Part shown: in pieces, positions 5,343 to 61,285 of the stretch
Layout of the letters: each line of letters starts with the position of its first letter
How positions within the stretch are numbered: position 1 is the stretch's first letter
Assembly: GCA_013374835.1 (NCBI GenBank)
Contig: CP055307.1
Coordinates: 10,447-74,446 of the forward strand
Length of the DNA: 64,000 nucleotides
Reading direction: 5' to 3'
From: Candidatus Woesebacteria bacterium
Lineage (GTDB): Bacteria; Patescibacteriota; Microgenomatia; UBA8517
Position numbers and translations under genes: made by a program
The notes under the pieces: generated by a model
What the model saw: the letters and a program-made list of their open reading frames with translations, nothing else
Told to the model about the DNA's origin: nothing
Database searches by the model: none

Positions 5343-5416
5343 TAATTAAGTATAACAATGACAACAAGAAAAATTAAAAAAATATAAGTTTGATTTTTTT
5401 AAATCTAAACTAAAAT

Positions 5417-33973: not shown

Positions 33974-34042
33974 ACCAACGCTCCCAGATAATTCACTTTA
34001 ACATAGCGCAAGAAGTTAACTCAAGCGTTGGTATATAATCAA

Positions 34043-35944
34043 TTATCTTCTTATATTCAGTGAATGGCTTATGCCAATATAGTAGATGTTATCTTTATTA
34101 AGAGACGCATCCCCTAAACCAATTGCTAAGCTTCTAAACTGATTATTGTACTCTTTTACTGAATAAGCTATTTGATCTGTTAACTTAACTAAACTTACAC
34201 GATTATTAACAATATCAACAAGCTGACCCAAATATTCCTCCCACGAATCCAAATAAAACGATATCCACGGCGATATTTTGGTACCAGGAATTAATTTCGG
34301 CAACACATACGTTTGAGTGTCTCGATCAACATCCACCCTGCCTCCCGAGATAATTTTCTCTTTTGGTATCGACACTGCAATTAAATAATCTTTACCGCTA
34401 TCCTTGTGGCGCGCAAGCATTAGGATGTCAATAACTTCAAGCTCACCTCCAAAATTAGCTTCTTCTATGATTTGATTTGTTTCAGGATCCCTAAGAAAAA
34501 GTCCTGTTATTACCCTCTCCCCCAAAAAACCAACAAAGGCACCATCGGGTGAAATTGAAATGTCTTTATAATACGAGTAGTTTTCAGACTTAAAAAGACT
34601 AACACCATCATGATAACCATCTGATTTAATCTGATAACTCTTTCCATCTACCACTATACTTCCTGAAATCACATTACGATCAACTCCAGAATAATACACC
34701 TTTGTATCTGGAGTTACAGCATATTCCCCCTGCCAAGGTCTTCCAAGATATTCTCCGTTGGTTCCAAATATTTCATTTGAATAGCCTAAAAATATTTCCT
34801 CCGACTCCCTAAAATAGTTAAAGCTATTAATATTTGGACCTACTGCTACTTTTCTTAAGGGGATATTTCCCTGAAACAGAGAGTAAGCAACCCAGGCGTA
34901 TTCTACCTGATCTTCTGGTGTGGGAGTTTCTACAAGGATCCATGTATAGCCTTCATTTGACACCTCTATCATTTCATCTTCGTTTATAATTGCCCCTAAA
35001 AGGTCTAAATTATCAGGTATTCCCTCAGGGTTGGGGATCACAACTTTATCGTTTATCTGCCCCAAGATTTGAGAGGTGGTATTTGGCTCTTTTCTTAAAT
35101 TTACATTTGCTCCTTGTGAGAAGGTTCTGAGTGTAAGAAAGTATGCAGCTTCCTTAGTAATTATTTGTGATATGTTTCCATCTTTGTCTACCTCCACAGG
35201 GATGAGTGATCCATTGGCTGGGAATTCAAAGGATCTGTTTTCATTTATGTATCCACATCTTGTCAGAGCTTTTAGTAGATCCTCCTTGAGTGTATCGTCT
35301 AATTTTGCAATGACTATTTTTGATCCTTCCTCCGCTGGATTAATCCAATGAAGGTCTCCTTCACTTCCATAAAATATTACTCCACCACTTTTATATTCTA
35401 CTTCATTCCAAGTAAAATCATTTTGTGCTTCAAGTACAACTGAAACTTTTTTGATTTCAGAATCTTTGTTTGTTTGGGTAAGAAGCTTTATGGACAGTTC
35501 TCCACCCCAGTTTTTTGCTTCTTCCTGCAAAAAAAGAACTCTTTCAAAACTTTGGGAAAGATCTGGATTGGTGATATTTTGAAGTTTTTCCATCTTTTCC
35601 GGATCAAGAGATACTGCCATCAGGGTGTCTGGAGCTTTCCTTGTTACTATCTCTGAGACAAGTCTTGATTCTTCATCCTCAAGGCTGATTGATGGTATTT
35701 CAGGAAGAAATTCTTTTTGAATTTGATTTTCTTTTGTTTCAAAGTCTGGAATAACTACATCACCCATTTGAGAAGCTCTAAACTCATCTACTGAACCTAT
35801 GTTTTGTGTGTGGGAATTTAATGAATTTGGATATGACTTTTGGGGATTTTTTTGATATTTTTCAGAAATAGGTCCAAGTGTTGAAGAAGAAAAAAATACA
35901 CCTGTAAAAAGAGCATCCACAGTCCCTTTAAACCTATCTTTCAT
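34043..35944 (-). CDS. paralog 1 of a three-member family of ~640-aa secreted SH3b-domain proteins
   Basis: Shares 'EAQNDFTWNEVEYKSGGVIFY' and the SH3b-like 'GANVNLRKEPNTTSQILGQI…GYTWILV' block with 36396..38312 and 39490..41433. Preceded by the conserved leader. Confidence 0.55.
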   Translation of the reverse strand: MKDRFKGTVDALFTGVFFSSSTLGPISEKYQKNPQKSYPNSLNSHTQNIGSVDEFRASQMGDVVIPDFETKENQIQKEFLPEIPSISLEDEESRLVSEIVTRKAPDTLMAVSLDPEKMEKLQNITNPDLSQSFERVLFLQEEAKNWGGELSIKLLTQTNKDSEIKKVSVVLEAQNDFTWNEVEYKSGGVIFYGSEGDLHWINPAEEGSKIVIAKLDDTLKEDLLKALTRCGYINENRSFEFPANGSLIPVEVDKDGNISQIITKEAAYFLTLRTFSQGANVNLRKEPNTTSQILGQINDKVVIPNPEGIPDNLDLLGAIINEDEMIEVSNEGYTWILVETPTPEDQVEYAWVAYSLFQGNIPLRKVAVGPNINSFNYFRESEEIFLGYSNEIFGTNGEYLGRPWQGEYAVTPDTKVYYSGVDRNVISGSIVVDGKSYQIKSDGYHDGVSLFKSENYSYYKDISISPDGAFVGFLGERVITGLFLRDPETNQIIEEANFGGELEVIDILMLARHKDSGKDYLIAVSIPKEKIISGGRVDVDRDTQTYVLPKLIPGTKISPWISFYLDSWEEYLGQLVDIVNNRVSLVKLTDQIAYSVKEYNNQFRSLAIGLGDASLNKDNIYYIGISHSLNIRR

Positions 35945-36350: not shown

Positions 36351-36395
36351 AATTATAATAATATTAAACTACTGAAGCTAAAAAAAGCAATGCTG

Positions 36396-38312
36396 TTAGC
36401 CAATAAGAACAAGATGTCGTTCACGGATCATTTTTGATTTTGTTCCTGCTGGGGTTACTACCTCTTGTTCATCTCCGATTACATTCTTTACTACGCTTTC
36501 TATCTCATTAACAAACCCTCCGACAACCGGCTTAAGTTTTACAAGTTCACCTCCATAACCTAAGCTATAAGCCATAAAAATGAAGAGTACATCCTCTGAA
36601 AGATAACTTTGAATCAATAAATTGCCATAATCATTCCGATTACTTGGTATTTCATATAATATTCTGCCCAACACATAATTTTGTTTCTTTTCAGGCTTAT
36701 AGCCATTTGCCACAGTATTATAACCCCAAGTAATTGTTTTATAAACATCCGCGGTCATATCCGAAGCTATTTGAATAAATAATCTATTGTTAGGATTTCC
36801 CATCCTAAATCTAGGGTGATCTTTAAAGGTGTCAATTATCCTGTTTATTAACTCCTCATCGTGATTGAATCTAGATCTTGACAAATCCTCCTGCCCCCTT
36901 AGGGTTCTATTTGCAAGATGAGTTGGATTTCCCTCTAGTCTCGCGTTTATTCCAAGCTCTGGAATAATAAGTGTATCAAGCGTTGTAACCCAACCGCTTT
37001 CAACATTTTGCCCCATCCCAGGCCTCCAAACAAATACTTTTCCATCCATGATCTTTACATATCCCCTTAGTTCATGGGAGTATTTTCCCTCTGCTTCATC
37101 TATTACTTCTTGGGGTGTATATTCTGTAACAGTTTCTTTTGTTCTCCTGTATTCTTCTTCTGTTATTCCGTATCTCTCCCATGGAGCTTCACCTGAATCA
37201 AAGTAGTATATTTCTTCTAAGGTTTTGAATCTTTTTTCATCAAGATTGTCAATTTTTATCCCCAAAACTTGAAATTCTCTTTTTAGTGTTATCAGGTTTC
37301 CTGCGGTCCAGCCTATTTTTCCATCTTTTGTCATTACCATTACCCACTCATTTACGCCCACTTTTTTGACTAACATCCTATTTTCTTCATCTTCTACTAC
37401 ACCATCTTCTCTTAAGGCAGGTGGTACTAAAGTGGGATCAACAATTATATTATTGTCTATTGAATTTTCTAATATGTTCTCATTTGTTGTTGTATCTGGG
37501 GTTTTTCTTATCCTTACTCCCTGGGTTCCTTGATACATTTGGCTCACAAAGTAAAAGCTTGCGTCTTTTGTTCTGACTTGTATGAGTTGCCCTTGCAAGT
37601 CTGTCTCTAAAACAACCCAACTACCGAGTTCAGGGAGTTTTAGTGTGTGGTAGCGATTGTATCCGGCAAGATCAAAGCCCTGCTTTATTTTGTCTACCAA
37701 ATCCCGATCTAGCTTTGTTATTGAAATATTTGTTTCTATGCCAAGATGCTTTGAGGGAACTATTGCACGAGCAAGTCCTTCACGGTCTATGAAAATTTCT
37801 GAGTCTTTTTTGATACTTACCGGGTTTCCTTCGCTATCAAGCCATTCAAAATCATTTTCGGCTTTGAGCATTATCCCCACTTGTTGGTTCTTAATATATA
37901 CTGCATCCTGATTTACCTCGGATTCATAGATAATATTTAGGTTTAGATTGCCTCCAAAACTTTCTGCATCCTTAATGGCTTCAAGTGCTGCTTGTGTGTA
38001 AGCCCAGAGCTCACTTCCCTCTTCAAGTTTAATATCTGGTACTAAGATGCCGTCTTCGCTCTCACTAAGATTGACCTTTTGAATAATCAAGCCTTCTTTA
38101 TCCACCCCTGAAGTTTCTAAAATAGACTCTGCCTCGGATTTGCGGAGAGCATGTTTGTCTATTGAGAGCAAGTCGTGAGAGAGCTTTTCTTGCTGATCTA
38201 GAAATTCTGGTCTAAGGAAAACTGAAGCGGTAGCAGCAGCAATAAGTTTTAAAAATTCACGCCTAGTTAGGTTTGCGCCAAACTCCTTCTTGGCCAAATT
38301 GTCAGGAGTCAT
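36396..38312 (-). CDS. paralog 2: Tat-signal (TRREFLKL) secreted SH3b-domain protein
   Basis: Twin-arginine motif 'LTRREFLKLIAAATASVFL'. The block 'PWERYGITEEEYRRTKETVTEYTPQEVIDEAEGKYSHELRGYVKI' is almost identical to the one in paralog 3. Confidence 0.6.
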   Translation of the reverse strand: MTPDNLAKKEFGANLTRREFLKLIAAATASVFLRPEFLDQQEKLSHDLLSIDKHALRKSEAESILETSGVDKEGLIIQKVNLSESEDGILVPDIKLEEGSELWAYTQAALEAIKDAESFGGNLNLNIIYESEVNQDAVYIKNQQVGIMLKAENDFEWLDSEGNPVSIKKDSEIFIDREGLARAIVPSKHLGIETNISITKLDRDLVDKIKQGFDLAGYNRYHTLKLPELGSWVVLETDLQGQLIQVRTKDASFYFVSQMYQGTQGVRIRKTPDTTTNENILENSIDNNIIVDPTLVPPALREDGVVEDEENRMLVKKVGVNEWVMVMTKDGKIGWTAGNLITLKREFQVLGIKIDNLDEKRFKTLEEIYYFDSGEAPWERYGITEEEYRRTKETVTEYTPQEVIDEAEGKYSHELRGYVKIMDGKVFVWRPGMGQNVESGWVTTLDTLIIPELGINARLEGNPTHLANRTLRGQEDLSRSRFNHDEELINRIIDTFKDHPRFRMGNPNNRLFIQIASDMTADVYKTITWGYNTVANGYKPEKKQNYVLGRILYEIPSNRNDYGNLLIQSYLSEDVLFIFMAYSLGYGGELVKLKPVVGGFVNEIESVVKNVIGDEQEVVTPAGTKSKMIRERHLVLIG

Positions 38313-39489: not shown

Positions 39490-41433
39490 TTAATCTACAA
39501 TAACTAAACTTTTAGGTCGGACAGCATATGCATGCATCATTAAATCAAGATCGCCCAATACATTTGAGATATACCCTTCAATCTTTGAATTAAACCTGTA
39601 TTTTACCGGTTTTCCACCCCAAATAACATTTTTTGGATCGCCCAAATCACCAGTTAAAAATTGGTATGTTGAAATCATGATCATCTCGGAAAACGCAGTT
39701 TCTGCAATACCTTCTTTTTGGTTATCGTATTCTTCTTTTAATCCATAAAAAAGCCTTCCTGTTGCGAATTTATCAGTATAATATGCATCAATCTTAAAAG
39801 CTTCTAGCGCGTCTCCTAGGTTTGGAGTTAGTATAATAGGTTTATATATATCAACATCTTCATCTAATTCTGTTACTATCTGAAAAAATATTTTACTTCC
39901 CTCCCTAAATCTTGTGTTGCGATTAATCTTTCTGCTTTGATTTTCTAACAACTCTTTCTCAAAATTTAACATTTCTTCCTCCAAGAATCTTATATTATTA
40001 AGGTCTGCCAGTCCTTTCTGACTCTTTGAACGCTTACTCAACTCTATATCTCTACCTTCTAAGATTATCTCGAGCCAACCATCTTTTTTGTTATGGAATT
40101 TAAAACTTCCTAACTGCTTATACCATCCGTTCTTGCCTGCTCCTGGTCTCCAAACCATGACATCAGAGGTTTCTTCATCGATTTTTACATATCCCCTTAG
40201 TTCATGGGAGTATCTTCCCTCTGCTTCACTTATCACTTCTTGGGGTGTGTATTCATTTACAGTTGCCTTTGTTTCAAGGTATTCTTCTTCTGTTATCCCA
40301 TATCTTTCCCAGGGCTTATCTTCAAAATCAAAGTAATTTATTTCATCAATGCTTCTGAAAATTGACTCCCTTGGTATTTGAGGCCCGGCTGCTACATTTA
40401 CAGTATCTGGATTTTTTACATCTAAAGCACTCCAGCCATACCGTCCATCGCTGTACCGGACTAAGTACCATTTATATCCATTGGCTTGTGTTACAAAAAC
40501 TTTACTTTCTTTATATGTGTCTACAGAAACATTTCTGGGATCTACGTTTCCAGGTAACTCAGGAGGTAGTCCAGTGGGTGTAACTATTGATGTATTGGCA
40601 TCCAGGGTTTGTGTTATTATGTTTTGATTATTTGAAGTATTTGGTTCACTTCGAACATTAAGCTCAACCGGACCAACAAACACTCTCTTTGTTAAAAATA
40701 CAGCTTCTCCTTCGGTAATTATCTGGACAATATTTCCTTCTCCATCTAATTCCGCCATTATCCAAGAGCCGGCTCCTTCGGTTATTAGTTCTCCATATCC
40801 GAGTTCTTTGTATTTTGCTTTCAACTGGGAGTCTGTCTGTTCATTAAGTTTTATGGTTTTAATTTTTGATCCAGGGAGAAATCCGGATTCTTTGATGAAG
40901 TGTAAACTAAATTCTCCACCATCTTTCTCTCTTATGATAATGGGTTCGCCTGCCTTTACATCTCTTTCTCCCATCTTTAGATCGCTTTTTGCCCTCATTA
41001 TCACAGCTGCTTCTTTTGGAGGGTTTACCCCATCGTAATCAAAGAGTATTTCCAGCCCCATGTCGGCACCTTCTATACGCAGGTCGTTTATCCAACCCAG
41101 TGCATAATCAATCTGTTCTTTTAAGCCTTGGGTTTCAAACTGAATTTCGGGAGTTAAATACCCATTTAGATTTTCCTCGAGTTTAAGTTCTCTGAAAGTA
41201 AGCGCAGGCTCTATTGGCCTGTTATACTCAGGCTCTATCAATCTGGCGGCATCGGTATCTGTAAGATTAAATTTCTCAATCGATGCCTGAACTTGAATCT
41301 CGGATTGCCTTTCCTTTATCTCCAAACCTGGAAGCGCAGTCATAGTAAGTGCTGAAGCCGCACCCCATTCCAAGACTTGGCGCCTTGTTAGCTTTGTATC
41401 AAACACCTTCTCTACCAAATTATCAGGTGTCAT
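39490..41433 (-). CDS. paralog 3: Tat-signal-like secreted SH3b-domain protein
   Basis: 'LTRRQVLEWGAASALTMTALPG', with a shared C-terminal block and SH3b-like 'VELNVRSEPNTSNNQNI…GYKWYLVRYSDGRYGWSA'. By manual counting the start codon lies about 1 nt from the ORF-track coordinate. Confidence 0.6.
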   Translation of the reverse strand: MTPDNLVEKVFDTKLTRRQVLEWGAASALTMTALPGLEIKERQSEIQVQASIEKFNLTDTDAARLIEPEYNRPIEPALTFRELKLEENLNGYLTPEIQFETQGLKEQIDYALGWINDLRIEGADMGLEILFDYDGVNPPKEAAVIMRAKSDLKMGERDVKAGEPIIIREKDGGEFSLHFIKESGFLPGSKIKTIKLNEQTDSQLKAKYKELGYGELITEGAGSWIMAELDGEGNIVQIITEGEAVFLTKRVFVGPVELNVRSEPNTSNNQNIITQTLDANTSIVTPTGLPPELPGNVDPRNVSVDTYKESKVFVTQANGYKWYLVRYSDGRYGWSALDVKNPDTVNVAAGPQIPRESIFRSIDEINYFDFEDKPWERYGITEEEYLETKATVNEYTPQEVISEAEGRYSHELRGYVKIDEETSDVMVWRPGAGKNGWYKQLGSFKFHNKKDGWLEIILEGRDIELSKRSKSQKGLADLNNIRFLEEEMLNFEKELLENQSRKINRNTRFREGSKIFFQIVTELDEDVDIYKPIILTPNLGDALEAFKIDAYYTDKFATGRLFYGLKEEYDNQKEGIAETAFSEMIMISTYQFLTGDLGDPKNVIWGGKPVKYRFNSKIEGYISNVLGDLDLMMHAYAVRPKSLVIVD

Positions 41434-41584: not shown

Positions 41585-41956
41585 TTAATTAACTTTTTGT
41601 TTTTTGTAATAATTTATAATTTCCTGAAACAATTCTTTGTAATATCCTGTTTTCTCCTTATAATTAAATATCAATTCTGCTCCAGCATACATAGCTTTCC
41701 CTAAACTTTTATCTTTTTCTTCAATATCCCTAAGCCACCATATTTCTCCATTAAAAGTAAGGTATTCACATATTGCAGAAAATTCTTGAATAGAAATCTT
41801 TTTTTCTAGGAAATCTTCAACTGCCAGTAAAAATACTTTTTTAATGTCTTCCATTTTAAACCTGTTCCAAAAAAATTTGGGTTTTATTCCGAAACTTCTT
41901 TGATATTTATGAATAATATCGCTTACGTCTGGAAGTTTGTTGTTTTTATAATTCAT
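41585..41956 (-). CDS. hypothetical protein
   Basis: ORF with an ATG start. Basic, with no motifs recognised. Confidence 0.4.
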   Translation of the reverse strand: MNYKNNKLPDVSDIIHKYQRSFGIKPKFFWNRFKMEDIKKVFLLAVEDFLEKKISIQEFSAICEYLTFNGEIWWLRDIEEKDKSLGKAMYAGAELIFNYKEKTGYYKELFQEIINYYKKQKVN

Positions 41957-42074
41957 AATTTTAAAAATAGAAGGACATGGGGTTTATACCCTATCGTGGT
42001 AGCTGACACGATTAACTGCTCTTATGTGCAGCAAGTCCTTCTTTGATAGCTACTTATTCAATTATAACTCGGCA

Positions 42075-42308
42075 TTATCCGATATTTGGATATTGTCGAG
42101 TCACTCGACCAGTGTTCTGGTTTACTTCATGGATGCCCCAGCAATTACCACTCTGGTCAGTGTCGAACGATCTGCGATAGTTCGAGCTTGGATCGTAAGA
42201 CACAACATGCCAATGGTCGCCTCTGTTATAGGCATTGCTGTGATTGAAGCTCCATCCACTCTGGTAAACAGTTATTCCTGGTCCTGATGGAAACACAGGA
42301 AAGGACAT
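42075..42308 (-). CDS. small hypothetical protein S1 (77 aa, from the ATG preceded by a GGAGG SD, not the TTG-extended ORF-track start)
   Basis: 'gagaaaggaggaaggcggATGtcc' reads SD-8nt-ATG, located at the 3' edge of repeat R1. No signal peptide. Confidence 0.45.
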   Translation of the reverse strand: MSFPVFPSGPGITVYQSGWSFNHSNAYNRGDHWHVVSYDPSSNYRRSFDTDQSGNCWGIHEVNQNTGRVTRQYPNIG

Positions 42309-42315
42309 CCGCCTT

Positions 42316-42617
42316 CCTCCTTTCTCAGATCTCAACTGGCGCAACTGCCAGCTAGTCTGCCCGGGATTGGGCGGAGGAGATTGGCTTTCTTGGAGTTTTT
42401 TAGCTTTACTTCTTTGGCTTTTTCTACCTTAGTGGCTTTTTTATGTTTGGCCTCTATTCCTCCCGCTTTTGGGAGTCGGCCGGCTATACAAGCATGAAGT
42501 TAGAAAACAGGCCTTTGAAGTTTGAGCCTAAAACCCAAGCTTTTGAAGGTGCAAAAGCGAATTTCGCACGCTTTGGGAGGTAGATTAGCAGAAGAAGAAG
42601 AAGAAGAAGTCAAGGGG
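42316..42617 (-). repeat. R1: ~300-nt conserved structured element / long 5' leader (copy 1), containing a (GAA)6 tract
   Basis: About 88% identical over ~300 nt to 44178..44474. It has the same orientation and an SD+start codon at its 3' (minus-strand) end. Several conserved hairpins (CTGGC-AGTTGC-GCCAG, CTCCC-AAAAGC-GGGAG, AAAGCG-TGCGAAATT-CGCTTT) are present. Confidence 0.7.
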
Positions 42618-42619
42618 TG

Positions 42620-43840
42620 TTACCTGATATTTCTTGATATCAAATTTCCTGCTGCCACAGCATGGGGCAATGAATTAAAAGGCTTTAATACTATCTGATC
42701 ATCTAGTATATATAGCGGGTTTTCTTTCTGCTTTGCTCCTTTAAAACAACGGTTAAAAGTCTCTGCATATAATTTGCTTAAATTTTGGTTTGGGTTTTTA
42801 TAAATCTCAATCTCAAACAAAATCCTTCGAAATACTAACAAAAAATCCACGATCCTTGACTGGTATAGTCTATCGGATAAATTTCTTAACTCTTTGAACT
42901 CAATTTCATATGCCTCAACTTCAGCCTGATATTTTCCTTTTTCAAGAAGATCAATTTCGTTTTCAAAATTTTTTAAATAACTCAAAACATGACCAAGCTC
43001 ATGAATCAAAAATAAAGATTGGTGACGAACATTAAAATTATTGTTTATATATACATCAAAACCATCTTTTTTGCTGTTATAGATGGTATACGTTTTATCT
43101 GACATTAGAACATTTATTTTTGACCTAAATTTATTTAAAAGATTATATTTTTTAAACATATATTTTTTAACTTCATGAGGTGATCTTAGGGGAAAAGCCG
43201 GCAATAAACACACTAAACAGGGTTTATTAAAGATTGAATAAAAATCACGAGAAAAATCTGTTTTTGTAAGAATTTGATTATTTATGAAATCAATTATTTT
43301 ATCTACATTTATGATAAATTTATTGAAATCTGATAAAGGAATTTTGTATTTTTTCTTATAAAAATTTATAAATTCGGACCGATGTAAACTTTCAACTTCT
43401 TTTTTTCTGTTAACTAATAATTTTATAAATTTTTCTTCTATTTCAGTTAACGGCAGATCCAGTTCATCCCAGATTTTTTTCCTATCTTCAATTCTTTTGT
43501 CAAAGACTTCTTTATCAATTCTATTGGCTACTTCAGTAGGCAAAAGAAGAAAATAATCTGACATTGCTTTTTCATATTTACTATTGCCAGGATTAAAAAT
43601 ATCTAATTTCTTTAGTGTTTTTGTCACAAAATCTTTATCTATCGCTTCACGAATTCTGTGCTTTATGTATAAATTAATAGAGCATGTTTTTGGATCCCTT
43701 AAAATTTTGTAGTCTTTTTCAGCTTCAAATCCAGCATTCAAAACTAGATCTTTGATTTTTTTGGGATCAGAAAATTTAGTATGGATTTTATATTGAGGAT
43801 AATATTCTTTAAATATGTCATTTAAGTCTTGATTTCTCAT
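42620..43840 (-). CDS. cytoplasmic HExxH metallopeptidase-like protein
   Basis: 'LFLIHELGHVLSY' is an HExxH motif, and glutamates follow about 25 aa downstream ('EVEAYEIEF'). No signal peptide. The gene is flanked on both sides by the R repeats. Confidence 0.5.
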   Translation of the reverse strand: MRNQDLNDIFKEYYPQYKIHTKFSDPKKIKDLVLNAGFEAEKDYKILRDPKTCSINLYIKHRIREAIDKDFVTKTLKKLDIFNPGNSKYEKAMSDYFLLLPTEVANRIDKEVFDKRIEDRKKIWDELDLPLTEIEEKFIKLLVNRKKEVESLHRSEFINFYKKKYKIPLSDFNKFIINVDKIIDFINNQILTKTDFSRDFYSIFNKPCLVCLLPAFPLRSPHEVKKYMFKKYNLLNKFRSKINVLMSDKTYTIYNSKKDGFDVYINNNFNVRHQSLFLIHELGHVLSYLKNFENEIDLLEKGKYQAEVEAYEIEFKELRNLSDRLYQSRIVDFLLVFRRILFEIEIYKNPNQNLSKLYAETFNRCFKGAKQKENPLYILDDQIVLKPFNSLPHAVAAGNLISRNIR

Positions 43841-43950
43841 AGTTTTACAATTTTATTAAAATTAATGGAGAAAGAGTATAGCTAATATGCTATTTGGAGG
43901 GCTGGGACCCACTCTTTCTCCTTCCAGAAGTATTCGTTTAGGTCAACAAG

Positions 43951-44172
43951 CTAGGACCGCTCATCGCTTGAGACGTTCTCTGGGCTTTGACCACATCCAC
44001 CCGTTGAGCCCTGACTATTGCCAGAGGTTTCTTCAAAGCCTTTAGATGCAGAAATCGCATCTGCAGGATTCGTCTGAACAATGTGATCTGAGCCATAGTA
44101 GATTGTACGGTCAAGCTGCAATCCCCACTTGTCCGCAAGCTCTTGAGCTTTCGGCGAATACTTGTCGCTCAT
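43951..44172 (-). CDS. small hypothetical protein S2 (73 aa)
   Basis: 'ctgagaaaggaggagaagATGagc' reads SD-5nt-ATG at the 3' edge of repeat R2. Ser/Gly-rich C-terminus. Confidence 0.45.
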   Translation of the reverse strand: MSDKYSPKAQELADKWGLQLDRTIYYGSDHIVQTNPADAISASKGFEETSGNSQGSTGGCGQSPENVSSDERS

Positions 44173-44177
44173 CTTCT

Positions 44178-44474
44178 CCTCCTTTCTCAGAACTTAACTG
44201 GCGCAACTGCCAGCAAGTCTGTCCGAGATTGGGCGGGAGAGAGATCTTTCTTGGAGTTTTTTGGCCTTACTTCTTAGGCTTTTTCTATCTCAGTGGCCTT
44301 TTTTGTGTTTAGCCTGTTTCTCCTCCCGCTTTTGGGAGTTGGCCGATTTAGATAGGCATGAGGTTAGAAAATAGGCCTTTGAAGTTTTGGCCTAAAAAAC
44401 CCAAGCCTGTGAAGGTGCAAAAGCGAATTTCGCACGCTTTGGGAGGTAGATTAGCAGAAGAAGAAGTCAAGGGG
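44178..44474 (-). repeat. R2: ~300-nt conserved structured element / long 5' leader (copy 2), with a (GAA)3 tract
   Basis: See R1. Confidence 0.7.
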
Positions 44475-44477
44475 AGG

Positions 44478-45053
44478 TTAGTTTATATCTACCAGTTTGG
44501 TTTCGGTTCTTTTGAAGCGCTCGTAGGAGGAGTTGAGCATATTAAGAAAACTATTTGGATCTTTTGGATCATTATGAATCTCTTTGGTAAAGAACCAGAT
44601 TGTGTTGTGGATCGCCATCTGAACATTTTCGTTGGAGAAATTATCCGGGTTTATATAAAGATTTACTTTTAGAACACCGTTTTCAAAAGATATGCTTGCG
44701 CTACTTAGATCTTTTTCTTGTGTGCCTATTTTAAAATACGGCTGAGGTTCATTTGTAAATACAAACTCGATTTTTCTAATAGGCGTGTAAAGTTTTATAT
44801 ACTCGCTATCTGGATTTCCGTAATAAATAGTATTAATTTCACTGAATTTAGAATCGGATAATATTTCCTCCCAAGCCGTTTTATCTCCCAGCTCGGCTGA
44901 ATTAATTTGAGGGTGATTTGATTTAAAGCTAATTTCTACGCCGCCGACTTTTTCTGGAGGGAAAACAGCACTACGAATAACAAGAAACCATAAAAGAACA
45001 GGGATTAGAAGCAAAAAAAAGATGATTACCAATAAAACCTTTTTGTTAAACAT
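44478..45053 (-). CDS. hypothetical membrane-anchored protein
   Basis: N-terminal TM helix (VLLVIIFFLLLIPVLLWFLVI) followed by a soluble domain. Confidence 0.45.
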   Translation of the reverse strand: MFNKKVLLVIIFFLLLIPVLLWFLVIRSAVFPPEKVGGVEISFKSNHPQINSAELGDKTAWEEILSDSKFSEINTIYYGNPDSEYIKLYTPIRKIEFVFTNEPQPYFKIGTQEKDLSSASISFENGVLKVNLYINPDNFSNENVQMAIHNTIWFFTKEIHNDPKDPNSFLNMLNSSYERFKRTETKLVDIN

Positions 45054-45080: not shown

Positions 45081-45812
45081 TCAAATATTTGAAGGGGTGG
45101 CTATTATTAGAAGTCTTTTTTTTGCTGTACCCGGCGGATCGCATGTTTGAAGAATAAGCTCTTCTTTGTCGTCTTTGGGAATGAGCCAGCTTGTTTCCGA
45201 GGGTTCTGCTATAAATTTGTAAGTTACTTTGTATTCAAATTTTTTGTTGTTATAAAATATTATTACTTTATCCCCCATCTCAAGCTCCCGTAGTCTAAAA
45301 AACACTGCATTATAATCGGCTACATTAAGGCTTGAGTCCGTTGAATGAGCGAAAAGGAAAATACTCCTTCCCTGCCCGGGGAAAAATGTATCTTTCGCAT
45401 GGGCGATGCCTTTTTTTAGAGCATCTTTATATTGATCATCATCAAAAGGATCTATGTTTGGAATTATTTTTGATTTGGCTTCAATTTTGGGAATGACTAT
45501 TGAAAAGCTTGTATCCACCCCCCACACGCGGGCTTCTTCCATTACTGCACCAACAGAATCATCTTTTACAAGATAGCGGCTTGTTTTGGGAACGGACTGG
45601 ATTACCGGTTTAGGGGTGGGAAAGGGACTAATTATTTTTTTCTCATAATAAGCGTTGAGGGGGGCGCTATAGTTAACCAAAAAAAATGTGATTGAGAGGC
45701 TTGTAAGAGAAAGGCCTAAAAGTTTAAGAATTTTTTGAAAAAGATTTAGATTTCTCATATAAAAATAGCCCCAAAAACCCAAGAGCTGCCATGGTGAGAG
45801 CAAGAAACTCAT
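45081..45812 (-). CDS. sortase family transpeptidase
   Basis: His ('FLFAHSTDS'), the catalytic 'LILQTCDP' (TLxTC) motif and a downstream Arg ('KKRLLI') are present. N-terminal TM anchor. The true start is possibly the internal M (MRNLNLF, ~45758), which reduces the overlap with the upstream gene. Confidence 0.7.
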   Translation of the reverse strand: MSFLLSPWQLLGFWGYFYMRNLNLFQKILKLLGLSLTSLSITFFLVNYSAPLNAYYEKKIISPFPTPKPVIQSVPKTSRYLVKDDSVGAVMEEARVWGVDTSFSIVIPKIEAKSKIIPNIDPFDDDQYKDALKKGIAHAKDTFFPGQGRSIFLFAHSTDSSLNVADYNAVFFRLRELEMGDKVIIFYNNKKFEYKVTYKFIAEPSETSWLIPKDDKEELILQTCDPPGTAKKRLLIIATPSNI

Positions 45813-46323
45813 CGGGCCCTGTTTCGGGCAGGGTTTGGCCTCCTTTTGTCTCTACTGTAAAGCCGGGTTTGGGTGTTCCAGTCGGCGTTGGACTGATGGT
45901 CGGTGTCGGGCTTGGTGATGGCGATTTTGTGGGAGCCGGGGTTGGGGTAGCAAACTGGGGATTTCCGGCGCTATAGAGATTACAATTATTATCCCCTTCT
46001 TTAACTCGGATGCTACAAGCTAGTGTCGCGTTTTTGGGATAATAGTGGACCTCACCGCAGTTTGATGGAGGATTTGCACAGAGCGCGTCGCTTCTTGCAT
46101 CTGTCAAACTAGCTCCCTGATCTTCCTTGGTGCAAGCACCGTCTTTATTAGTATCTCCATTTGGGCAGTTATAAGTCTCGCAACGGACGATAGCTTCCCC
46201 GTCTGGGCAATGGTACCACGGAGAGTTTTGCGCTTTTACCACGCTTTCGGCAGAAAAAAGCAGAAAAAATAATAGCAAAGATAGATTTATAAATAATTTT
46301 TTATTCATCAAAAATACTGACAA
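45724..46323 (-). CDS. secreted Cys-rich surface protein with LPXTG cell-wall sorting signal (sortase substrate)
   Basis: Signal peptide, 12 Cys and a 'PTPAPTKSPSPSPTPTISPTPTGTPKP' linker. The C-terminus carries 'LPETG' followed by a hydrophobic helix and a 'KSKSFSKNS' tail. Confidence 0.7.
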   Translation of the reverse strand: MSVFLMNKKLFINLSLLLFFLLFSAESVVKAQNSPWYHCPDGEAIVRCETYNCPNGDTNKDGACTKEDQGASLTDARSDALCANPPSNCGEVHYYPKNATLACSIRVKEGDNNCNLYSAGNPQFATPTPAPTKSPSPSPTPTISPTPTGTPKPGFTVETKGGQTLPETGPDEFLALTMAALGFLGLFLYEKSKSFSKNS

Positions 46324-52212: not shown

Positions 52213-53478
52213 TTAACTACACGGACGAAGCGTTGCCGCTTCGACCAACCCGGTGAAACCAGGAGGGATCCCAACTTTAGGGTCCTCCTGACCAGGACGC
52301 GGTTCGCCAGCTTCAGCGCGATAACCGTCTTGCCAACATCCAGAGCTGTTGGTGAGACTCGTCGGCACACTCGCGACTACCCAGCAGTTTGTCTCGCCAG
52401 CGCACTGCGTGAGTGTGACTCCGACTGGGAGGGCGAACAATGTTCGCACCGTCGACTCGGACCAGTCGGCAGGCGCCGGCTGAACGGACTGTGCTGCAGG
52501 TACAGGTTGTGCGGCGGTGGTGGCCGTGGTGATGGGTGTCACTTGGACAACCCATCCTGTTACCCAAGCGCGAGTCCCGTCGGAGTCAGAAACTCGATAC
52601 CACTGCTCTTGGTCGACCAAGACATAGCCGTCCGACGAGACAATCTGACCTGGTACCAGCGTACCCACCTGGTCGAAACTCTCGCCAGGACCTGAACGCA
52701 GATTTACGTTCCCGTTCCCGCTTGGGGTAACAGAAAACAACTGCGGCTCGTCGCATGGGCGTAGTGTCGCCATTTCGGCAGCGACCTGATACGAGTGCGG
52801 CGGGATCGAAATCCGCGGGCCATCGGGATGATTCGAGAAGTCCGGTCGGACTTCACCGGGGTTGACACGGAACCCGTCCACCCAATTTGAGCAGACGTTT
52901 GTGACCAGCCAGCTCTGTCCCTCGATAAACGGGACTTCCCAGCTCTGGAGTCCGTGACGCTGAAGTGGCACAACAGGCCCCTCCAACTGATAAAAAGCTA
53001 CGGCCTCTTCCACCGACCATTGGACTTCGGATTCGCCGCGTTCCTCGAGCGAACTCTGCTGCTCAGGAGCCAGCGGTCGAGCGACCAAGACTTCGACGAA
53101 GCATTCCTGCGTCGTCACGAAATTAGGCGGTATTGAAATCCGGTCAGCTCTTTGCATCGCTGCATAAGATGGCCGCACTTCGCCCGCACACTTACGATAC
53201 CCATCCACCCACAGGGTGAACGGGTTGACCATCTGGATGCTGCCGGCGAACTTCCAGCAATTCGGTTCAACGACGCCCTCGTAAAGGCACTCCACCACGG
53301 CGTACGTGCCGGAAATGCTGTAAAGAGCGACCGCTTCTTCGATCGTCCATGAGGCTGTAGGGGTGGGGGTTGGTGTCTCCCCACCTTGTGCGTTCACTGA
53401 AGGCGTTACCGCCGACAGCGCCAGGGTTGCAACCAAAAAGGCCACAACCAAAGTCCCAAAAACTACGTTTTTGCGCAT
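52213..53478 (-). CDS. secreted protein with a bacterial SH3 (SH3b) domain and three repeats of a novel Cys-containing ~45-aa module; encoded in a ~60% GC island
   Basis: Strong SD (AAAGGAGGT-6nt-ATG) and a signal peptide. SH3b-like 'GNVNLRSGPGESFDQVGTLVPGQIV…WYRV'. The three repeats read 'W.DG(Y/F)R…GE(V/P)RP…I(S)IPP…ATLRPC'. Codon usage is clearly different from the neighbours. Confidence 0.65.
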   Translation of the reverse strand: MRKNVVFGTLVVAFLVATLALSAVTPSVNAQGGETPTPTPTASWTIEEAVALYSISGTYAVVECLYEGVVEPNCWKFAGSIQMVNPFTLWVDGYRKCAGEVRPSYAAMQRADRISIPPNFVTTQECFVEVLVARPLAPEQQSSLEERGESEVQWSVEEAVAFYQLEGPVVPLQRHGLQSWEVPFIEGQSWLVTNVCSNWVDGFRVNPGEVRPDFSNHPDGPRISIPPHSYQVAAEMATLRPCDEPQLFSVTPSGNGNVNLRSGPGESFDQVGTLVPGQIVSSDGYVLVDQEQWYRVSDSDGTRAWVTGWVVQVTPITTATTAAQPVPAAQSVQPAPADWSESTVRTLFALPVGVTLTQCAGETNCWVVASVPTSLTNSSGCWQDGYRAEAGEPRPGQEDPKVGIPPGFTGLVEAATLRPCS

Positions 53479-54102: not shown

Positions 54103-54813
54103 TTAGATTTTTAGGAGGCGTGCGTAAACGAAAATTCTTGTGTCGCTTGTGAGATCCTGACAGGTGTAAAGTATTAAATCTGCCGAATAATCGGAAATTT
54201 TATCACCTTTAGCTAATTCATAAACTTCGTAAATATATTTTCTTTGCTGCCAGATGATTTCGACTGTATCCCCCTTTTCAAGCTTTGGAAGATTATAAAA
54301 GGAATGTTTTCTTCTAAAGATATTGCTCCATTTTAAATATCCAAAGCGGTGTGCGGCAAGAATTATAGGTTTAGAGTTATTATCCGGTGTTGCAAAATCC
54401 GGGACTCTCCAGACGCCTTTTTTGAGAGCTTCTTCGTAATTATCGTATGCTGCTTCGTGAATTTGCGTCTCAACTCCTATTTTTTCAATAACCAAGTGCG
54501 CGCCGAGCGAAAGGGATTTATCAAAAGGCGGCTTATAGGGAGTATTATCCTCTTCAGCGCTTGAATTAACTGCTTTTGCTTCCTCGGCCGTATCTAAAAG
54601 ATAGTTTGAGATTATTTTACCTCCTTGGGAACGGAGGCTATACCAAGCCGAAGGCGCGTATGAGGCTATAAAAAGAAAAATACCCAAACCAACTAAAAAA
54701 GCTGCCAGCCTTGTAAAGATATTTGGAGGGATGTCCGAGCTTTTCCTTTTCGGGACTTTGTGTGGCTTTCGAAAGTCTTTATTTAAATATTTCTCAATAT
54801 GCTTTGATTCCAT
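54103..54813 (-). CDS. sortase family transpeptidase (second copy)
   Basis: N-terminal TM anchor, His 'ILAAHRFGY', catalytic 'LILYTCQD' (TLxTC) and a downstream Arg 'VYARL'. Confidence 0.65.
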   Translation of the reverse strand: MESKHIEKYLNKDFRKPHKVPKRKSSDIPPNIFTRLAAFLVGLGIFLFIASYAPSAWYSLRSQGGKIISNYLLDTAEEAKAVNSSAEEDNTPYKPPFDKSLSLGAHLVIEKIGVETQIHEAAYDNYEEALKKGVWRVPDFATPDNNSKPIILAAHRFGYLKWSNIFRRKHSFYNLPKLEKGDTVEIIWQQRKYIYEVYELAKGDKISDYSADLILYTCQDLTSDTRIFVYARLLKI

Positions 54814-57962: not shown

Positions 57963-58170
57963 ACCCAGACTGTGTTAACCACAATCAGGGTAGCTGGTTT
58001 AAATTTTAAAAAGGTGCGAATTCAGATTGTTATCTGAAATCTAAAGAGAAAGGTACAAAGAAAAGTCTAATGACCGATTCGTGCAAAGTAAGCTTAATTC
58101 CTTACGGAACTTCCACTTCCTGCCGATCAACCTGATGTTCTTTCAGGAGTCTAAGAGCCCTCATCTTGGG

Positions 58171-58209
<39 letters not shown>

Positions 58210-58394
58210 AGGAATGTAGCTACCCGGCGCTGCCGCTGACGCGACAACCGGCACACTAGGGATTCCCCCTTCCTGGTCCTCTCGTACTGAGGAAAGCTCC
58301 CCTCAAGGCTCCAACGCACACACCGGATAGAGTCCGAGCTGTCTCGCGACGCTCTGAACCCAGCTCACGTACCACTTTAATGGGCGAACAGACC

Positions 58395-58427
<33 letters not shown>

Positions 58428-59013
58428 GTGAGCCGACATCGAGGTAGCGAACCGCGCCGTCGATATGGACTCTCGGGCGCGACTACTCTGTTATCCCCGG
58501 GGTAACTTTTATCCGTTAAGCCCCATCCATTCCCACAATGAGATGGGGGATCACTAAGACCTGCTTTCGCACTAGCTCCACCCGTCGGTGTCGCTATCAA
58601 GCTGGCTTATAGCTTTACCCTTAATCCGCCATTTCCATCGGCGGAAAGCCAACCTTTGTACCCCTGCGTTACCTTTTGGCAGGGTACCGCCCCAGTAAAA
58701 CTGCCCATCTGACACTTTTCCTGAACCCGTCTTCAGGGCCCTTAGGTAAGCCTTTTAATCTTCGAAGGGTGGTATCACACTGGCTCCCGATTAAATCGGG
58801 ATCCCACCTATTCTTGACAATCGAGGACTAAAGGAGGCAATGCCAGACTACAGTAAAGCTCCACGGGGTCTATTTGTCCTGGTGTGTGTAGGCCGCGTCT
58901 TCACAGCCACCGCAATTTCGCCGGGTGGATTTTCAAGACAGTTGTTAGCTCGTTACGCCTTTCGTGCGGGTCTAAACTTACTAGACAAGGAACTTCGCTA
59001 CCGTAGAACAGTT

Positions 59014-59762
59014 CATTTTTGTTACATTGAATACTTAAATATTCCTTAAGTATTCAAAGATTCTGTCATTTCTGCAGAATTCTCCGACTCTCGCCGGAGA
59101 TCGGACTATATCATCCCCACTTGGTATAAAACTCTGTGGAGGCTAACGTATAGTCTCTGGGGATTCCAAAACATCACTAATTGAATATTTTCTTTTTCTT
59201 CCTTTACCTTTGTTAAGCTTCTCTCTTATTTCAAGCAGTTTCAAAAGCCCATCTTTTTCAAGATGTTTTTTGTCATACATTATTTTCACAGCTTTTTTAA
59301 AAAGAGAAAAATTTCTCTTTTTAGTGTTTGAAAAAAAACTATATTTGGTAAAGAAAGGTATTATTTTTTCCTGAATTGCGGTTGGATTAGTAACATCAAA
59401 AGAATATAAACCATCTTTTCTTTGTTTGATAATTCCACAACCTAAATAACGTTTCATCAAAGCAAGAATTGTCCTTTCTCTTTGAGAAACATTAAAAGAT
59501 AAAACAGGTTGCCATCTTTGCTTATAATCGATTTTGTGGCGGAGTGAGATATTAAAACTTCCTTCTCCGTCAACAAAACCTGCAAAATACCAACCAATTT
59601 TTTCAGGAACTTTTATTCTGGACTGTTTTGGTCTTTCCTGCTGATTATCTCTATTCATCTGATTGTCACTGCTATTAAGGTAAATTTAGCTTAACAGCAG
59701 TACAGATGACCTGTCAAGATTTCCCAGCATATAGTTAGCTTTTACAACTACTATTTAATCTA
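59014..59762 (-). mobile_element. group-I-type intron in 23S rRNA, inserted between positions equivalent to E. coli U1917 and A1918 (helix 69), carrying a homing-endonuclease ORF
   Basis: Exon sequence '…GGCAGCAGUAACUAU' | intron | 'AACUGUUCUACGGUAGCGAAGUUCC…' aligns with E. coli 'GGCCGUAACUAU|AACGGUCCUAAGGUAGCGAAAUUCC'. The upstream exon ends in U and the intron ends in G (omega-G). The 749 nt between have no 23S similarity. Confidence 0.75.
59143..59658 (-). CDS. LAGLIDADG family homing endonuclease (single-motif, I-CreI-like homodimer type), intron-encoded
   Basis: A single 'YFAGFVDGEGSF' LAGLIDADG motif followed by the typical basic DNA-binding scaffold. 171 aa, located inside the 23S intron. 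Confidence 0.8.
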   Translation of the reverse strand: MNRDNQQERPKQSRIKVPEKIGWYFAGFVDGEGSFNISLRHKIDYKQRWQPVLSFNVSQRERTILALMKRYLGCGIIKQRKDGLYSFDVTNPTAIQEKIIPFFTKYSFFSNTKKRNFSLFKKAVKIMYDKKHLEKDGLLKLLEIREKLNKGKGRKRKYSISDVLESPETIR

Positions 59763-60588
59763 ATAGTTACTGCTGCCGTTTACCGGAGCTTCGGTTCAAA
59801 GCCCTGTGCAAAGCACGGACAGATCCCCTTAACTTACCGGCACTGGGCAGGCGTCAGCCCGTATACTTAAGATTTTCTCTTTTGCACGGACCTGTGTTTT
59901 TGATAAACAGTCGACTAACAATCATTAGCTGCGGTCCCGCCATGGGCGGGACAGGACATCTTGCGAACTTACGTCCAGCTTGTTTGCCTAGTTCCTTAAA
60001 AATCCTTCTCCCGATCGCCTTAGTATTCTCTACCTACCCACCTGTGTTGGTTTACGGTACGGCTTATTTGGGCACTCACTGCGAACCTTTTCTTGCAGGC
60101 TATTAACCAGAATCACCCTACTCTCGTAAGGCTTTGCACCACCCCGATTAAACGCAAGAGCGGATTTTCCATCTCTCACTACCGAGACTTCTGCACTTTA
60201 CTTCACGAAAAAGCTCTGATTTTTTCACCTTGTCAGTCCCCAGCTACCCCGCATAGCGGGGTTTGGCGCACCCAAACAAGTACTGGAATTTTAACCAGCT
60301 ATCCATCGGCTACGCCATATGGCCTTACCTTAGGAGCCGACTAACCCCTGGCAGACGAACTTCACCAGGGAAACCTTGGGTTTTCGGCGGTCCGGATTCT
60401 CACCGGACTTGTACGCTACTCATACCGGCATTCTCACTCCCATCCGTTCCACCTAACTTTACAGTTCGGCTTCACCACGAATGGGACGCTCCCCTACCAC
60501 GTCCCGCTAAGCGGGACATCTCTAGCTTCGGCACTTGGCTTATCCTCGATAAATCTTCGGCGCACGCTCTCGGTCGACCAGTGAGCTG

Positions 60589-60639
<51 letters not shown>

Positions 60640-61154
60640 AAGAGAGTGTACTTCCTTTCAAACTTAGTCAAGATTTAGAGGCCTTAGCTGAGAGTCTGGG
60701 TTGTTTCCCTTTTGTCGTACGAGCTTAGCCCCGTACGGCTGTATGCTAAACATCCTTATCAGTATTCGGAGTTTGGTTGATCACGATTGCTTTCGCTCTC
60801 GTGACCATCCAGTAGCTCTACCCCTGATAAGTTTTTATTTAACACGGTCCCTATAGACCTTTCGGGGAGAACCAGCTATCTCCAGGTCCGATTGGCATAT
60901 TACCGCTATCCACAAGTCATCCGAGCAAATTGCAACTTACACCGGTTCGGGCGTCCGCCACGCTTTCGCGTAACCTCCCCCTGCTCATGGATAGATCACC
61001 TGGTTTCGGGTCTGCCACACAGTACAAAATCGCGCTATTAACACTCGCTTTCGCTATGCCTTCCCCTTTTAGCAGGGTTAAGCCGCACTGTGAGACAACT
61101 CGCCGGTTCATTCTTCAATAGGCACGAGATCACCCGCTCGCAGAGCAGGAAGTT

Positions 61155-61285
61155 CCAAGATCTAATAATCAAATTGTAAACAAATTCCAACTCCAAAATT
61201 ACAAGCTTGACTTCAAACTTTCGCTATTTAAGGTTTGTAATTTGGTTATTGTTTGTGATTTGATATTTGTGATTTGAAATTTCCT
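61155..61285 (-). other. AT-rich IVS-like expansion in 23S domain I (helix-25 region)
   Basis: A ~130-nt, >75% AT insertion between conserved blocks corresponding to E. coli ~530-560. It forms a long imperfect hairpin (CAAATTACAA…TTGTAATTTG). Confidence 0.5.

Follow-up and report, generated by a model that had tools for sequence, protein, structure and literature searches.

Why would a bacterium carry nearly the same 300-nt segment twice, each time in front of a different small gene? The question is posed by a 64,000-nt stretch of Candidatus Woesebacteria bacterium contig CP055307.1 (positions 10,447 to 74,446; the window in what follows), in which two such segments, each ending in a Shine-Dalgarno (SD) sequence and start codon, precede the small open reading frames (ORFs) S1 and S2 on the minus strand and have a gene with an HExxH motif between them. 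The answer toward which we lean is that this element is a shared promoter and 5' untranslated region (5' UTR), i.e., a module for the expression of small-protein genes, with a second role as the tract of homology at which cassettes are exchanged. Literature searches turned up no description of the element or of the gene set.

A repeated element in front of two small genes

BLASTN of each island (leader plus small gene) against the whole window identified exactly two copies of the element, at 42306-42617 (copy 1) and 44173-44474 (copy 2), both on the minus strand and 87.7% identical over 293 aligned columns (E 1e-96). The same pair was returned as collinear blocks by a repeat finder, and no third copy was found in the 64 kb window with nhmmer or a covariance model. 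These results bear out an earlier note on this DNA, made from the letters alone, which had described two co-oriented minus-strand repeats of about 300 nt and about 88% identity, each running from the stop codon of an upstream gene to the SD-ATG of a small ORF. At their 5' edges, copy 1 begins 2-3 nt past the TAA (42620-42622) of the 406-aa HExxH gene and copy 2 directly past the TAA (44478-44480) of a 191-aa gene; at their 3' ends both copies read CTGAGAAAGGAGGA, followed by AGGCGG-ATG of S1 in the one and by GAAG-ATG of S2 in the other. The GC content of the islands was about 0.46-0.50, compared with 0.22-0.35 in adjoining genes. Two other accounts of the repeat pair were tried and rejected. 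Protein coding inside the repeat did not agree with indels of 1-2 nt between copies or with the loss, between the two types of copy described below, of the ORFs on either strand, and the repeat pair of a diversity-generating retroelement was rejected by eye, the mismatches being without adenine specificity.

The signal with which each copy ends is rare in its surroundings. The window has 38 non-overlapping ORFs that encode 150 aa or more; in the 22 nt upstream of the start, 31 of them held no SD-like motif, 6 a 4-mer and 1 GGAGG, and the partner genes of the modules likewise lacked an SD. Thus, with SDs nearly absent from the ORFs of the window, the S genes carry an exceptional signal. In several window genes the ATG comes a few bases behind a -10-like box, suggestive of leaderless mRNAs for these genes; in three paralogous genes (633-647 aa, at 34042-35944, 36395-38312 and 39490-41433, minus strand) the ATG is directly preceded by TTTATGATATTATAGGATAAT, a -10-like box of the TG-extended form at about 8 nt from that codon. 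The lone large ORF with GGAGG (52213-53478, minus strand) encodes a secreted-looking protein of 421 aa with an SH3_3 domain; its GC content is 0.58 (0.61 at third codon positions) in a window of 0.39 GC, and it may be foreign or under unusual constraint.

Copies in related contigs

Related contigs, designated here by our own numbers, were reached through 90%-identity clusters of neighbouring proteins, and a metagenome scan with an invariant 20-mer added L014 and L019 (four true contigs and four chance matches overall). Eight distinct full copies were obtained. The window, L006/L007 and L019 have two each, and L011/L012 and L014 one each, so that six copies come from related metagenome contigs. 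All eight end in AAAGGAGGA-N4-7-ATG with SD and ATG intact, all have the same orientation and all are joined exactly to the SD-ATG, although the small ORFs that they precede are of six different kinds (S1, S2, S3 of 84 aa, S74, S87 and S83). The idea of a portable promoter-leader cassette, raised in the earlier note, therefore holds, given eight copies before six ORFs, a promoter-like 5' end and cassettes joined at the 3' end.

A ninth site, in L014, consisted of TTGAC(TTC)5TGCTAGTCT, about 80 nt of unrelated leader and AAGGAGG-ATG of a 78-aa ORF; in this short-leader copy the -10 variant is TGCTAGTCT. The full L014 copy showed the opposite arrangement, without TTGACT and TTC tract and with similarity beginning at CTGCTAATCT, i.e., from the -10 onward. 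Since one of these sites has the promoter part only and the other the leader part only, promoter and leader are separable modules.

Beyond these contigs the element was not recovered. A 19-mer scan of GTDB species genomes gave no true copy and three chance matches in unrelated high-GC genomes, motif scans of viral contigs gave no true copy (nothing or one chance match) and BLASTN against phage and plasmid collections gave no match to the element. Comparison with the upstream regions of S2 homologues in L022, L024, L025 and L033 by nhmmer, by Smith-Waterman alignment with shuffles and by covariance model revealed no similarity; L022 and L024 have long folded upstream regions (about 220-450 nt) unrelated in sequence to the element, and the putative short leaders of L025 and L033 also start with a hairpin. 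Within what was searched, the element is limited to one species-level clade.

A selfish or passive repeat without regulatory role, such as a palindrome like a miniature inverted-repeat transposable element (MITE) or a repetitive extragenic palindromic (REP) sequence, or a recombination scar, would account for the long imperfect palindrome inside the element, for the exchange of its centre between copies, for an insertion sequence (IS) transposase (rve_3) that abuts one L014 module and for the breaks in contig assemblies. Short-read contigs repeatedly end within the element, as expected of a repeat within a genome. We nevertheless regard a passive repeat as highly unlikely. Copies with decayed SD or ATG and terminal inverted repeats, the marks of a MITE, were looked for, and what was found were eight intact ends out of eight and the same orientation and exact SD-ATG junction throughout; neither the repeat scan nor the alignments showed any convincing terminal inverted repeats (target-site duplications were not systematically looked for). 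The ends of the element, TTGAC(TTC)n and GAGAAAGGAGGA, are alike only as pyrimidine versus purine runs. Searches by nhmmer and by a covariance model of the eight copies found neither the whole element nor its centre standing alone in the window or in about 190 kb of related loci, those of distant relatives included, and the absence of the element from viral, phage and plasmid collections also speaks against a selfish repeat, as do sense-strand G-U and compensated pairs (see below), which point to selection on RNA. No recombinase was present among the neighbours scanned or those with precomputed Pfam hits (attC core motifs were not formally searched), and unlike an integron cassette the element has its own promoter-like motif and sits 5' of each ORF.

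Structure of the leader

In the alignment of copies, a 5' segment (84-100% identical among copies) and a 3' segment (81-100%) enclose a centre of about 150 nt, of which there are two types, with 81-100% identity within and 54-59% between types. The RNAalifold consensus comprised an 11-pair hairpin designated P1, a long irregular central hairpin (closing CUUGGG/CUCCAAG, apical CUCCC/GGGAG) and two small 3' hairpins. On the minus strand of the window, P1 of copy 1 (AAG.GUGCGAAA-UUCGC-UUUUGCAC.CUU) occupies 42546-42573 and the central hairpin, with its CUUGGG/CUCCAAG closing helix, 42389-42539, including the apical hairpin CUCCC-AAAAGC-GGGAG at 42460-42475. The 3' domain (42315-42380) begins with the CCUCC-containing tract UCUCCUCC (42373-42380), continues with the hairpins GCCC-AAUCCC-GGGC (42359-42372) and CUGGC-AGUUGC-GCCAG with its surroundings (42336-42351) and ends in the SD AAAGGAGGA (42315-42323). 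The corresponding features of copy 2 are P1 at 44412-44439, a central hairpin at 44250-44405 (type A', 82% identical to copy 1 there) and a 3' domain at 44177-44243 with CUCUCUCCC at 44235-44243, hairpins at 44221-44234 and 44198-44213 and the SD AAAGGAGGA at 44177-44185, before the ATG at 44170-44172.

Conservation of this structure was evident from the pairing of aligned columns. Thus, 97.7% of the 440 cells of the 55 consensus pairs were standard pairs, compared with 24-56% when partners were slid by 1-3 columns, and the observed covariation score was reached by 0 of 500 shuffles. Seven pairs were changed on both sides (type A versus type B), all of them in the central hairpin, whereas P1 was nearly invariant and showed no covariation. 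The strand could also be judged, as 37 cells were G-U on the sense strand and pairing would fall to 90.9% on the antisense strand and to 89.3% if only Watson-Crick pairs were allowed (hand calculation from the per-pair table); an RNA with the same sense as the S genes is therefore favoured. Such an RNA would be a 5' UTR of about 265 nt, transcribed from a putative start 7-8 nt after TAATCT. P1 would then begin 1-2 nt past the modelled start, which is itself placed from the position of the -10.

No Rfam 15 family matched the whole window at the gathering score, and matches at E of 10 or less to both window copies and a type-B copy were sub-threshold noise, the best being the HtrA thermometer on the wrong strand (18 bits versus a cut-off of 52). 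The Rfam comparison proposed in the earlier note was thus negative for the window and for either copy. Its suggestion of a cis-regulatory RNA gained support as regards a conserved sense-strand structure (seven compensated pairs and the pairing percentages given above) and gained none as regards a riboswitch, for which no Rfam match was found. A terminator/antiterminator switch, also suggested there, was rejected as a conserved feature: the GCUUUUG/CAAAAGC pairing followed by U is present only in copy 1, is weaker in copy 2 and has no U tail in type-B copies. The leader is a new RNA leader family, of a kind already known.

Whether this leader senses a signal was considered separately. A riboswitch, or a leader bound by a protein or small RNA, in which the signal opened or closed pairing between UCUCCUCC and the SD, would co-regulate the small-protein genes, and one leader on functionally linked yet different genes would form a regulon, new in that Rfam has no match to it. 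The size and the multi-helix fold, backed by compensatory changes, would suit such a role. So would the conserved CCUCC tract: in leaders folded from the modelled start (A 7-8 nt after TAATCT) to +40, pairing of GGAGG with UCUCCUCC was predicted in all eight copies, with p of at least 0.9 in most. This occlusion of the SD is, however, no better than in shuffled leaders and is not counted as shown. The covarying helices sit where loops and junctions differ between types (54-59% identity), so that there is no conserved aptamer-like core, the opposite of what a ligand pocket would leave, and the invariant parts give no structural evidence. Further, the terminator-like alternative hairpin is not conserved, the distribution is one narrow clade and the downstream genes are orphans with no common metabolic theme. 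A sensing RNA is, on these grounds, quite unlikely.

The near-invariance of P1 invites a different explanation at the level of DNA, namely that the 5' palindrome GTGCGAAA-TTCGC-TTTTGCAC binds a repressor at the transcription start and that the rest is spacer. This would fit a 5' block that stays 84-100% identical while the centre drifts, a P1 without compensatory change and three features of other loci: a helix-turn-helix (HTH) gene of XRE type that divergently adjoins the S2 homologue in L025, a 17-bp sequence directly repeated in tandem shortly upstream of the putative -10 in L022 and, in L033/L034, an XRE-type HTH gene that divergently adjoins an unrelated 72-aa small gene in the same neighbourhood. 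The palindrome, on the other hand, is imperfect as DNA and perfect as RNA via a G-U pair, no regulator gene lies beside the window modules and an operator would leave the compensated central helices and the conserved 3' domain unexplained. We consider it very unlikely. The repeat in L022 (about 5400-5450) is a perfect tandem repeat, CCTCTAAGGTGTCTAGA x2, immediately upstream of a TGaTATACT -10-like box before the S2 homologue and is operator-like in appearance.

Promoter-like 5' end and (TTC)n tract

By its motifs, each copy appears to open with a promoter of sigma-70 type with a TG-extended -10. In copy 1 (minus strand), the -35-like hexamer TTGACT at the 5' edge of the repeat (42608-42613) is followed by (TTC)6 (42591-42608) and the extended -10-like TGcTAATCT (42582-42590), with a 20-bp spacer from TTGACT to TAATCT; in copy 2 the promoter-like region (44448-44470) consists of TTGACT (44465-44470), (TTC)3 (44457-44465) and TGcTAATCT (44448-44456), with a spacer of 11 bp. 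A simple promoter scan misses both window copies because of these spacers. TGcTAATCT was invariant in all eight full copies, and TTGACT marked the 5' boundary in seven of the eight, across four different upstream contexts.

The simple-sequence repeat sits inside the putative core promoter, between TTGACT and TGcTAATCT, and sets the spacer at 3n+2, i.e., 11, 14, 17 and 20 bp for n of 3, 4, 5 and 6. The difference between (GAA)6 and (GAA)3, as the tracts had been read on the plus strand, was correct for the window copies; n was 4 and 5 in L006, 4 in L011, 6 and 4 in L019 and 5 in the short variant of L014. At the site after the HExxH gene, n was 6 in the window and L019 and 5 in L006, while at the site after a 151-aa gene n was 4 in contigs from several samples. 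In L014 (9166-10287 and 10233-10363), an IS-type transposase (rve_3, HTH_32) ends inside the promoter-like TTGAC(TTC)5 of the short-leader module, and its ORF crosses the TTC run, which it reads as a serine run.

These observations raise the question of a contingency (phase-variable) promoter, in which slippage of (TTC)n would switch each copy and n of 5, with its 17-bp spacer, would be the on state. The position of the tract exactly between TTGACT and TGcTAATCT would be apt, n varies among full copies (3, 4, 4, 4, 5, 6 and 6), the orthologous site after the HExxH gene differs in n between strains with flanks 96-99% identical and the locus is hypervariable among co-occurring strains. A tract of 3-6 units is, however, short for frequent slippage, n of 4 is stable across several samples at the site after the 151-aa gene and both window copies would be off. 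Spacing may, moreover, be irrelevant here, since a TG-extended -10 can function without a -35. Promoters of the vlhA genes, a precedent for such a switch, have (GAA)n with conserved flanks and are considered active only at n of 12 (PMC6258824). In our estimate a switch of this kind, although an attractive addition to the expression module, is unlikely.

Exchange of leader centres and cassettes

Comparison of strains indicated that the leader lies at the border of exchanged segments. Thus, downstream of the leader the window and L011 differed at 1 of 731 bases while their leader centres were of different types (58% identical), and across S2 and the HExxH gene the window and L006 differed at 7 of 1558 bases while their leader centres were 82% identical. 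Similarly, from the 3' end of the leader (window 42313) to about 41581, S1 and the gene for a 123-aa partner are replaced by S3 and a 117-aa partner in L006 and by S74 and a 136-aa partner in L019, the flanks of the replaced block being 94-97% identical. The HExxH genes of the window and L019 were 43% identical overall, yet the last 215 nt or so of the gene (window 42620-42835, about 72 codons; L019 1456-1671) formed part of a 97%-identical block running into the leader, which places a recombination breakpoint inside the gene. By these alignments there are at least four alleles of the locus, two of them in one sample, and the leader is one junction. An apparent frameshifted HExxH allele (L002 compared with L001, truncated 125-aa product in one public run) was set aside as probably a sequencing artefact, since the contig differs solely by one additional A in four homopolymer runs.

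In all related contigs (L011 10604-13209 and L027-L032) the 192-aa gene is separated from the leader by two genes, one for a 717-aa Peptidase_C39_2 protein and a divergent one for 151 aa. Both are missing from the window, where copy 2 abuts the 191-aa gene directly (44474-44480).

Small genes and their partners

The genes served by the two copies were as the earlier note had them, S1 with 77 aa, S2 with 73 aa and the HExxH gene between, and the hairpins that it placed after both small genes were right within one base. S1 (42075-42308, minus strand, GC 0.46) is an orphan, identical in L011. A word-indexed search with 42075-42308 gave nothing, and an exhaustive search gave only weak matches, between the initial 30 residues and a motif repeated in giant proteins (e.g., one of 2455 aa), so that no S1 family was detectable. 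S2 (43951-44172, minus strand, GC 0.50; motif ..TGG-CGQ(S/D)P.NV) matched only itself in the word-indexed search. Homologues with 49-64% identity were present upstream of the HExxH homologue in L022, L024 and L025, and S87 and S83 were more distant members; the family keeps the motif, followed by a variable tail. In S2, third codon positions differed about twice as often as positions 1 and 2, and synonymous differences from L025 were present in 29 of 72 codons. On this substitution pattern, S2 is a real conserved coding gene. Its single-sequence structural model was of low confidence (predicted local distance difference test, pLDDT, 57).

The six downstream small ORFs had no family assignment and no common pathway. 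Neither the small proteins nor their partners matched NCBIfam, PHROGs, PADLOC or Pfam, and no double-glycine leader, signal peptide or known maturase was recognisable. A resemblance seen by eye among the type-I small proteins S1, S3, S74 and S78 was not borne out, as pairwise comparison of the four gave no significant similarity. The small genes of this neighbourhood are often overlooked by gene callers.

Behind every S gene lay a stable branched hairpin whose tail was U-rich. In the window these are an intrinsic-terminator-like branched hairpin after S1, followed by UAUUUUU (41970-42041, minus strand; -28.4 kcal/mol, z -5.2), and a Y-shaped hairpin after S2 (GGAGAAAGAGU...ACUCUUUCUCC) with a U/A-rich tail (43867-43921, minus strand; -25.4 kcal/mol, z -3.8). 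The S2 homologues in L014, L022, L024 and L025 have hairpins of equivalent structure behind them, with stems that differ in sequence. Each S gene, closed in this way, thus looks like its own transcription unit.

The partner of S2 is the 406-aa HExxH protein (42620-43840, minus strand; HELGH), one of a family of 35 members, none of them named. H280, E281, H284 and E307 were invariant in 23 family members. There was no Pfam match and no sequence match in PDB, and an AlphaFold2 model (pLDDT 92) gave as top Foldseek matches M32 carboxypeptidases, M3 Pz-peptidase/oligoendopeptidase F, ACE and neurolysin (probability up to 1.0, template modelling score 0.4-0.5). The protein, which has an HExxH motif with a downstream Glu ligand and, in the model, a two-lobed all-helical channel fold, is accordingly predicted to be a distant, shortened relative of the M3/M32 gluzincin oligopeptidases, families in which the active-site channel admits only short unfolded peptides. 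S2-type genes adjoin the HExxH oligopeptidase gene in the four lineages examined (this clade, L022, L024 and L025).

The partner of the S1 cassette is an AT-rich gene without SD for a protein of 123 aa (41585-41956, minus strand). Three of the four partners of about 120 aa (123, 117 and 120 aa) were weakly collinear and the 136-aa partner of S74 was not. A clear relative of the 123-aa protein, identified by eye and unscored, lies next to the HExxH homologue in L033. The suggestion that S1, S2 and the peptidase are a leader-peptide/processing-enzyme system thus finds indirect support for S2, which stands beside an M3/M32-like gene in four lineages, and none for S1, which is paired with the partner of about 120 aa. 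About 1 kb from the HExxH homologue, L033 (4363-5657) and L034 (4357-5651) have an acidic, His-rich ORF of 57 aa next to a radical SAM/SPASM gene, an arrangement that from sequence looks like a pair of the kind seen with peptides that are made on the ribosome and modified after translation (RiPPs).

Interpretation

In the expression module that we favour, each copy of the element would drive a monocistronic gene of about 75 aa closed by a branched terminator, after which would come an AT-rich SD-less partner, either a helical protein of about 120 aa (S1-type) or an M3/M32-like HExxH oligopeptidase (S2-type). The module would lend the set of small-protein genes a common, unusually strong expression signal where SDs are almost absent. 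Its leader, if co-transcribed with the S gene, would most likely shield the mRNA and/or gate ribosome access, (TTC)n would set the spacing of -35 and -10 in 3-bp steps and could tune or silence single copies, and the conserved leader would act as the homology tract for swapping leader centres and whole S-plus-partner cassettes between strains.

Several findings weigh against this proposal. The promoter, the start site and the attachment of the leader to the S mRNA are predictions, the spacer is non-optimal in most copies (11, 14 or 20 bp, with 17 bp only at n of 5) and one full copy, that of L014, lacks both TTGACT and the TTC tract. The covariation comes essentially from a single split, type A versus type B, in a centre whose alignment is just 54-59% identical, and the 5' hairpin and 3' domain are nearly invariant and so without covariation evidence. 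In leaders whose upstream part was shuffled with the same dinucleotide content, pairing of the SD averaged 0.8, and 0.9 was attained by about a third of the shuffles. Finally, the eight copies belong to a single species-level clade; S2 homologues of more distant Microgenomates have leaders unlike the element in sequence and model, and one of these leaders, as modelled, runs about 50 nt to the SD (about 60 nt to the ATG).

A more far-reaching proposal would join these elements into a contingency system of the candidate phyla radiation (CPR), with the leader as common regulatory RNA, a TTC-tuned switch for each copy and a recombination handle by which strains of one community would trade leader centres and whole cassettes, possibly feeding peptides to the M3/M32-like oligopeptidase. 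We think this unlikely; if true, it would amount to a variable-gene strategy like that of vlhA, hitherto undescribed in the CPR, in a bacterium that is ultra-small and presumably host-dependent.

Almost nothing is known of gene regulation in CPR bacteria, and the locus offers a compact, testable example that pairs a perfect-SD expression unit, a leader RNA with compensatory changes and strain-variable small-protein/partner cassettes. It also lies in a conserved, unannotated Microgenomates neighbourhood of an S2-type small protein, a helical protein of about 120 aa and a shortened M3/M32-like metallopeptidase. If the leader is regulatory, it would be a new family of regulatory RNA; if not, it would still explain the assembly breaks and the strain variation.

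Other features of the window

Cell-surface genes flank the locus. They include a sortase-like gene at 45081-45812 (Pfam Sortase), another at 54103-54813 (minus strand; by sequence only) and, in the same flanks (45081-46323 region and 54103-54813), genes for a Pro/Thr-rich protein with LPETG and membrane anchor and for a multi-pass membrane protein of 1203 aa. GT1 and GT2 glycosyltransferases, named from Pfam hits on the L011 orthologues, are also present in the flanks. The relatives of the window's proteins bear the names Candidatus Blackburnbacteria, Woesebacteria or Microgenomates group, which places the bacterium in the Microgenomates group of the CPR. The window carries 23S and 5S rRNA and three tRNAs, with tRNA-Ala(TGC) just upstream of the 23S gene and tRNA-Ile(GAT) on the opposite strand; no 16S rRNA was found in it. 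The 23S match (58058-62053) spans 3996 nt, compared with a 2925-nt model, so that about 1 kb is inserted, and a 171-aa ORF (59142-59658, minus strand) lies inside; the insert may be an intron with a homing endonuclease.

Comparison with known systems

Stabilising 5' UTRs with a 5'-terminal stem-loop are known from the Escherichia coli ompA leader, the Bacillus subtilis aprE leader and cryIIIA STAB-SD. The element shares with them a long leader, a stable hairpin at the predicted 5' end, a strong SD and a build apparently made for high output; there is no sequence relation, and here the start is a predicted one, the leader is about twice as long and a 150-nt central hairpin is present. Leaders that sequester the SD (riboswitch expression platforms and RNA thermometers such as ROSE and fourU) are similar in that a conserved upstream CCUCC tract would, by prediction, pair with GGAGG and close a small two-hairpin domain, but the element matches no Rfam family, its pairing is no better than in shuffled leaders and a conserved aptamer-like core is lacking.

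Two further comparisons are with the precursor-gene architecture of RiPP and bacteriocin loci and with strain-variable bacteriocin-immunity regions, of which pneumococcal blp is one. Similarities to these include a small gene that has a strong signal of its own and, behind it, first a hairpin and next a gene for a partner or processing protein, alternative cassettes at one locus according to strain and, in relatives, an adjoining C39-type peptidase gene. In contrast, a recognisable double-glycine leader, signal peptide or known maturase is missing here. Correia elements of Neisseria and the enterobacterial repetitive intergenic consensus (ERIC) are hairpin-forming intergenic repeats that end up in UTRs. 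They resemble the element as intergenic repeats of 150 to 300 bp with a long imperfect palindrome that are substrates of recombination, and differ from it in that here orientation is fixed, fusion to SD-ATG is exact, no terminal inverted repeats were found, copies are few and compensatory changes come with sense-strand G-U pairs.

As regards the tract, the closest described case is vlhA of Mycoplasma gallisepticum, where (GAA)n has 4-27 units, is placed about 40 nt upstream of the transcription start and has been linked with activity at exactly 12 units (PMC6258824). As in that system, a multigene set has a conserved 5' region that holds a GAA/TTC tract, whose length varies among copies and strains while its flanks are conserved. 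The tract of the present element differs in having 3-6 units placed between the -35 and -10, and the products of its genes are small, cytoplasmic-looking proteins as opposed to surface lipoproteins.

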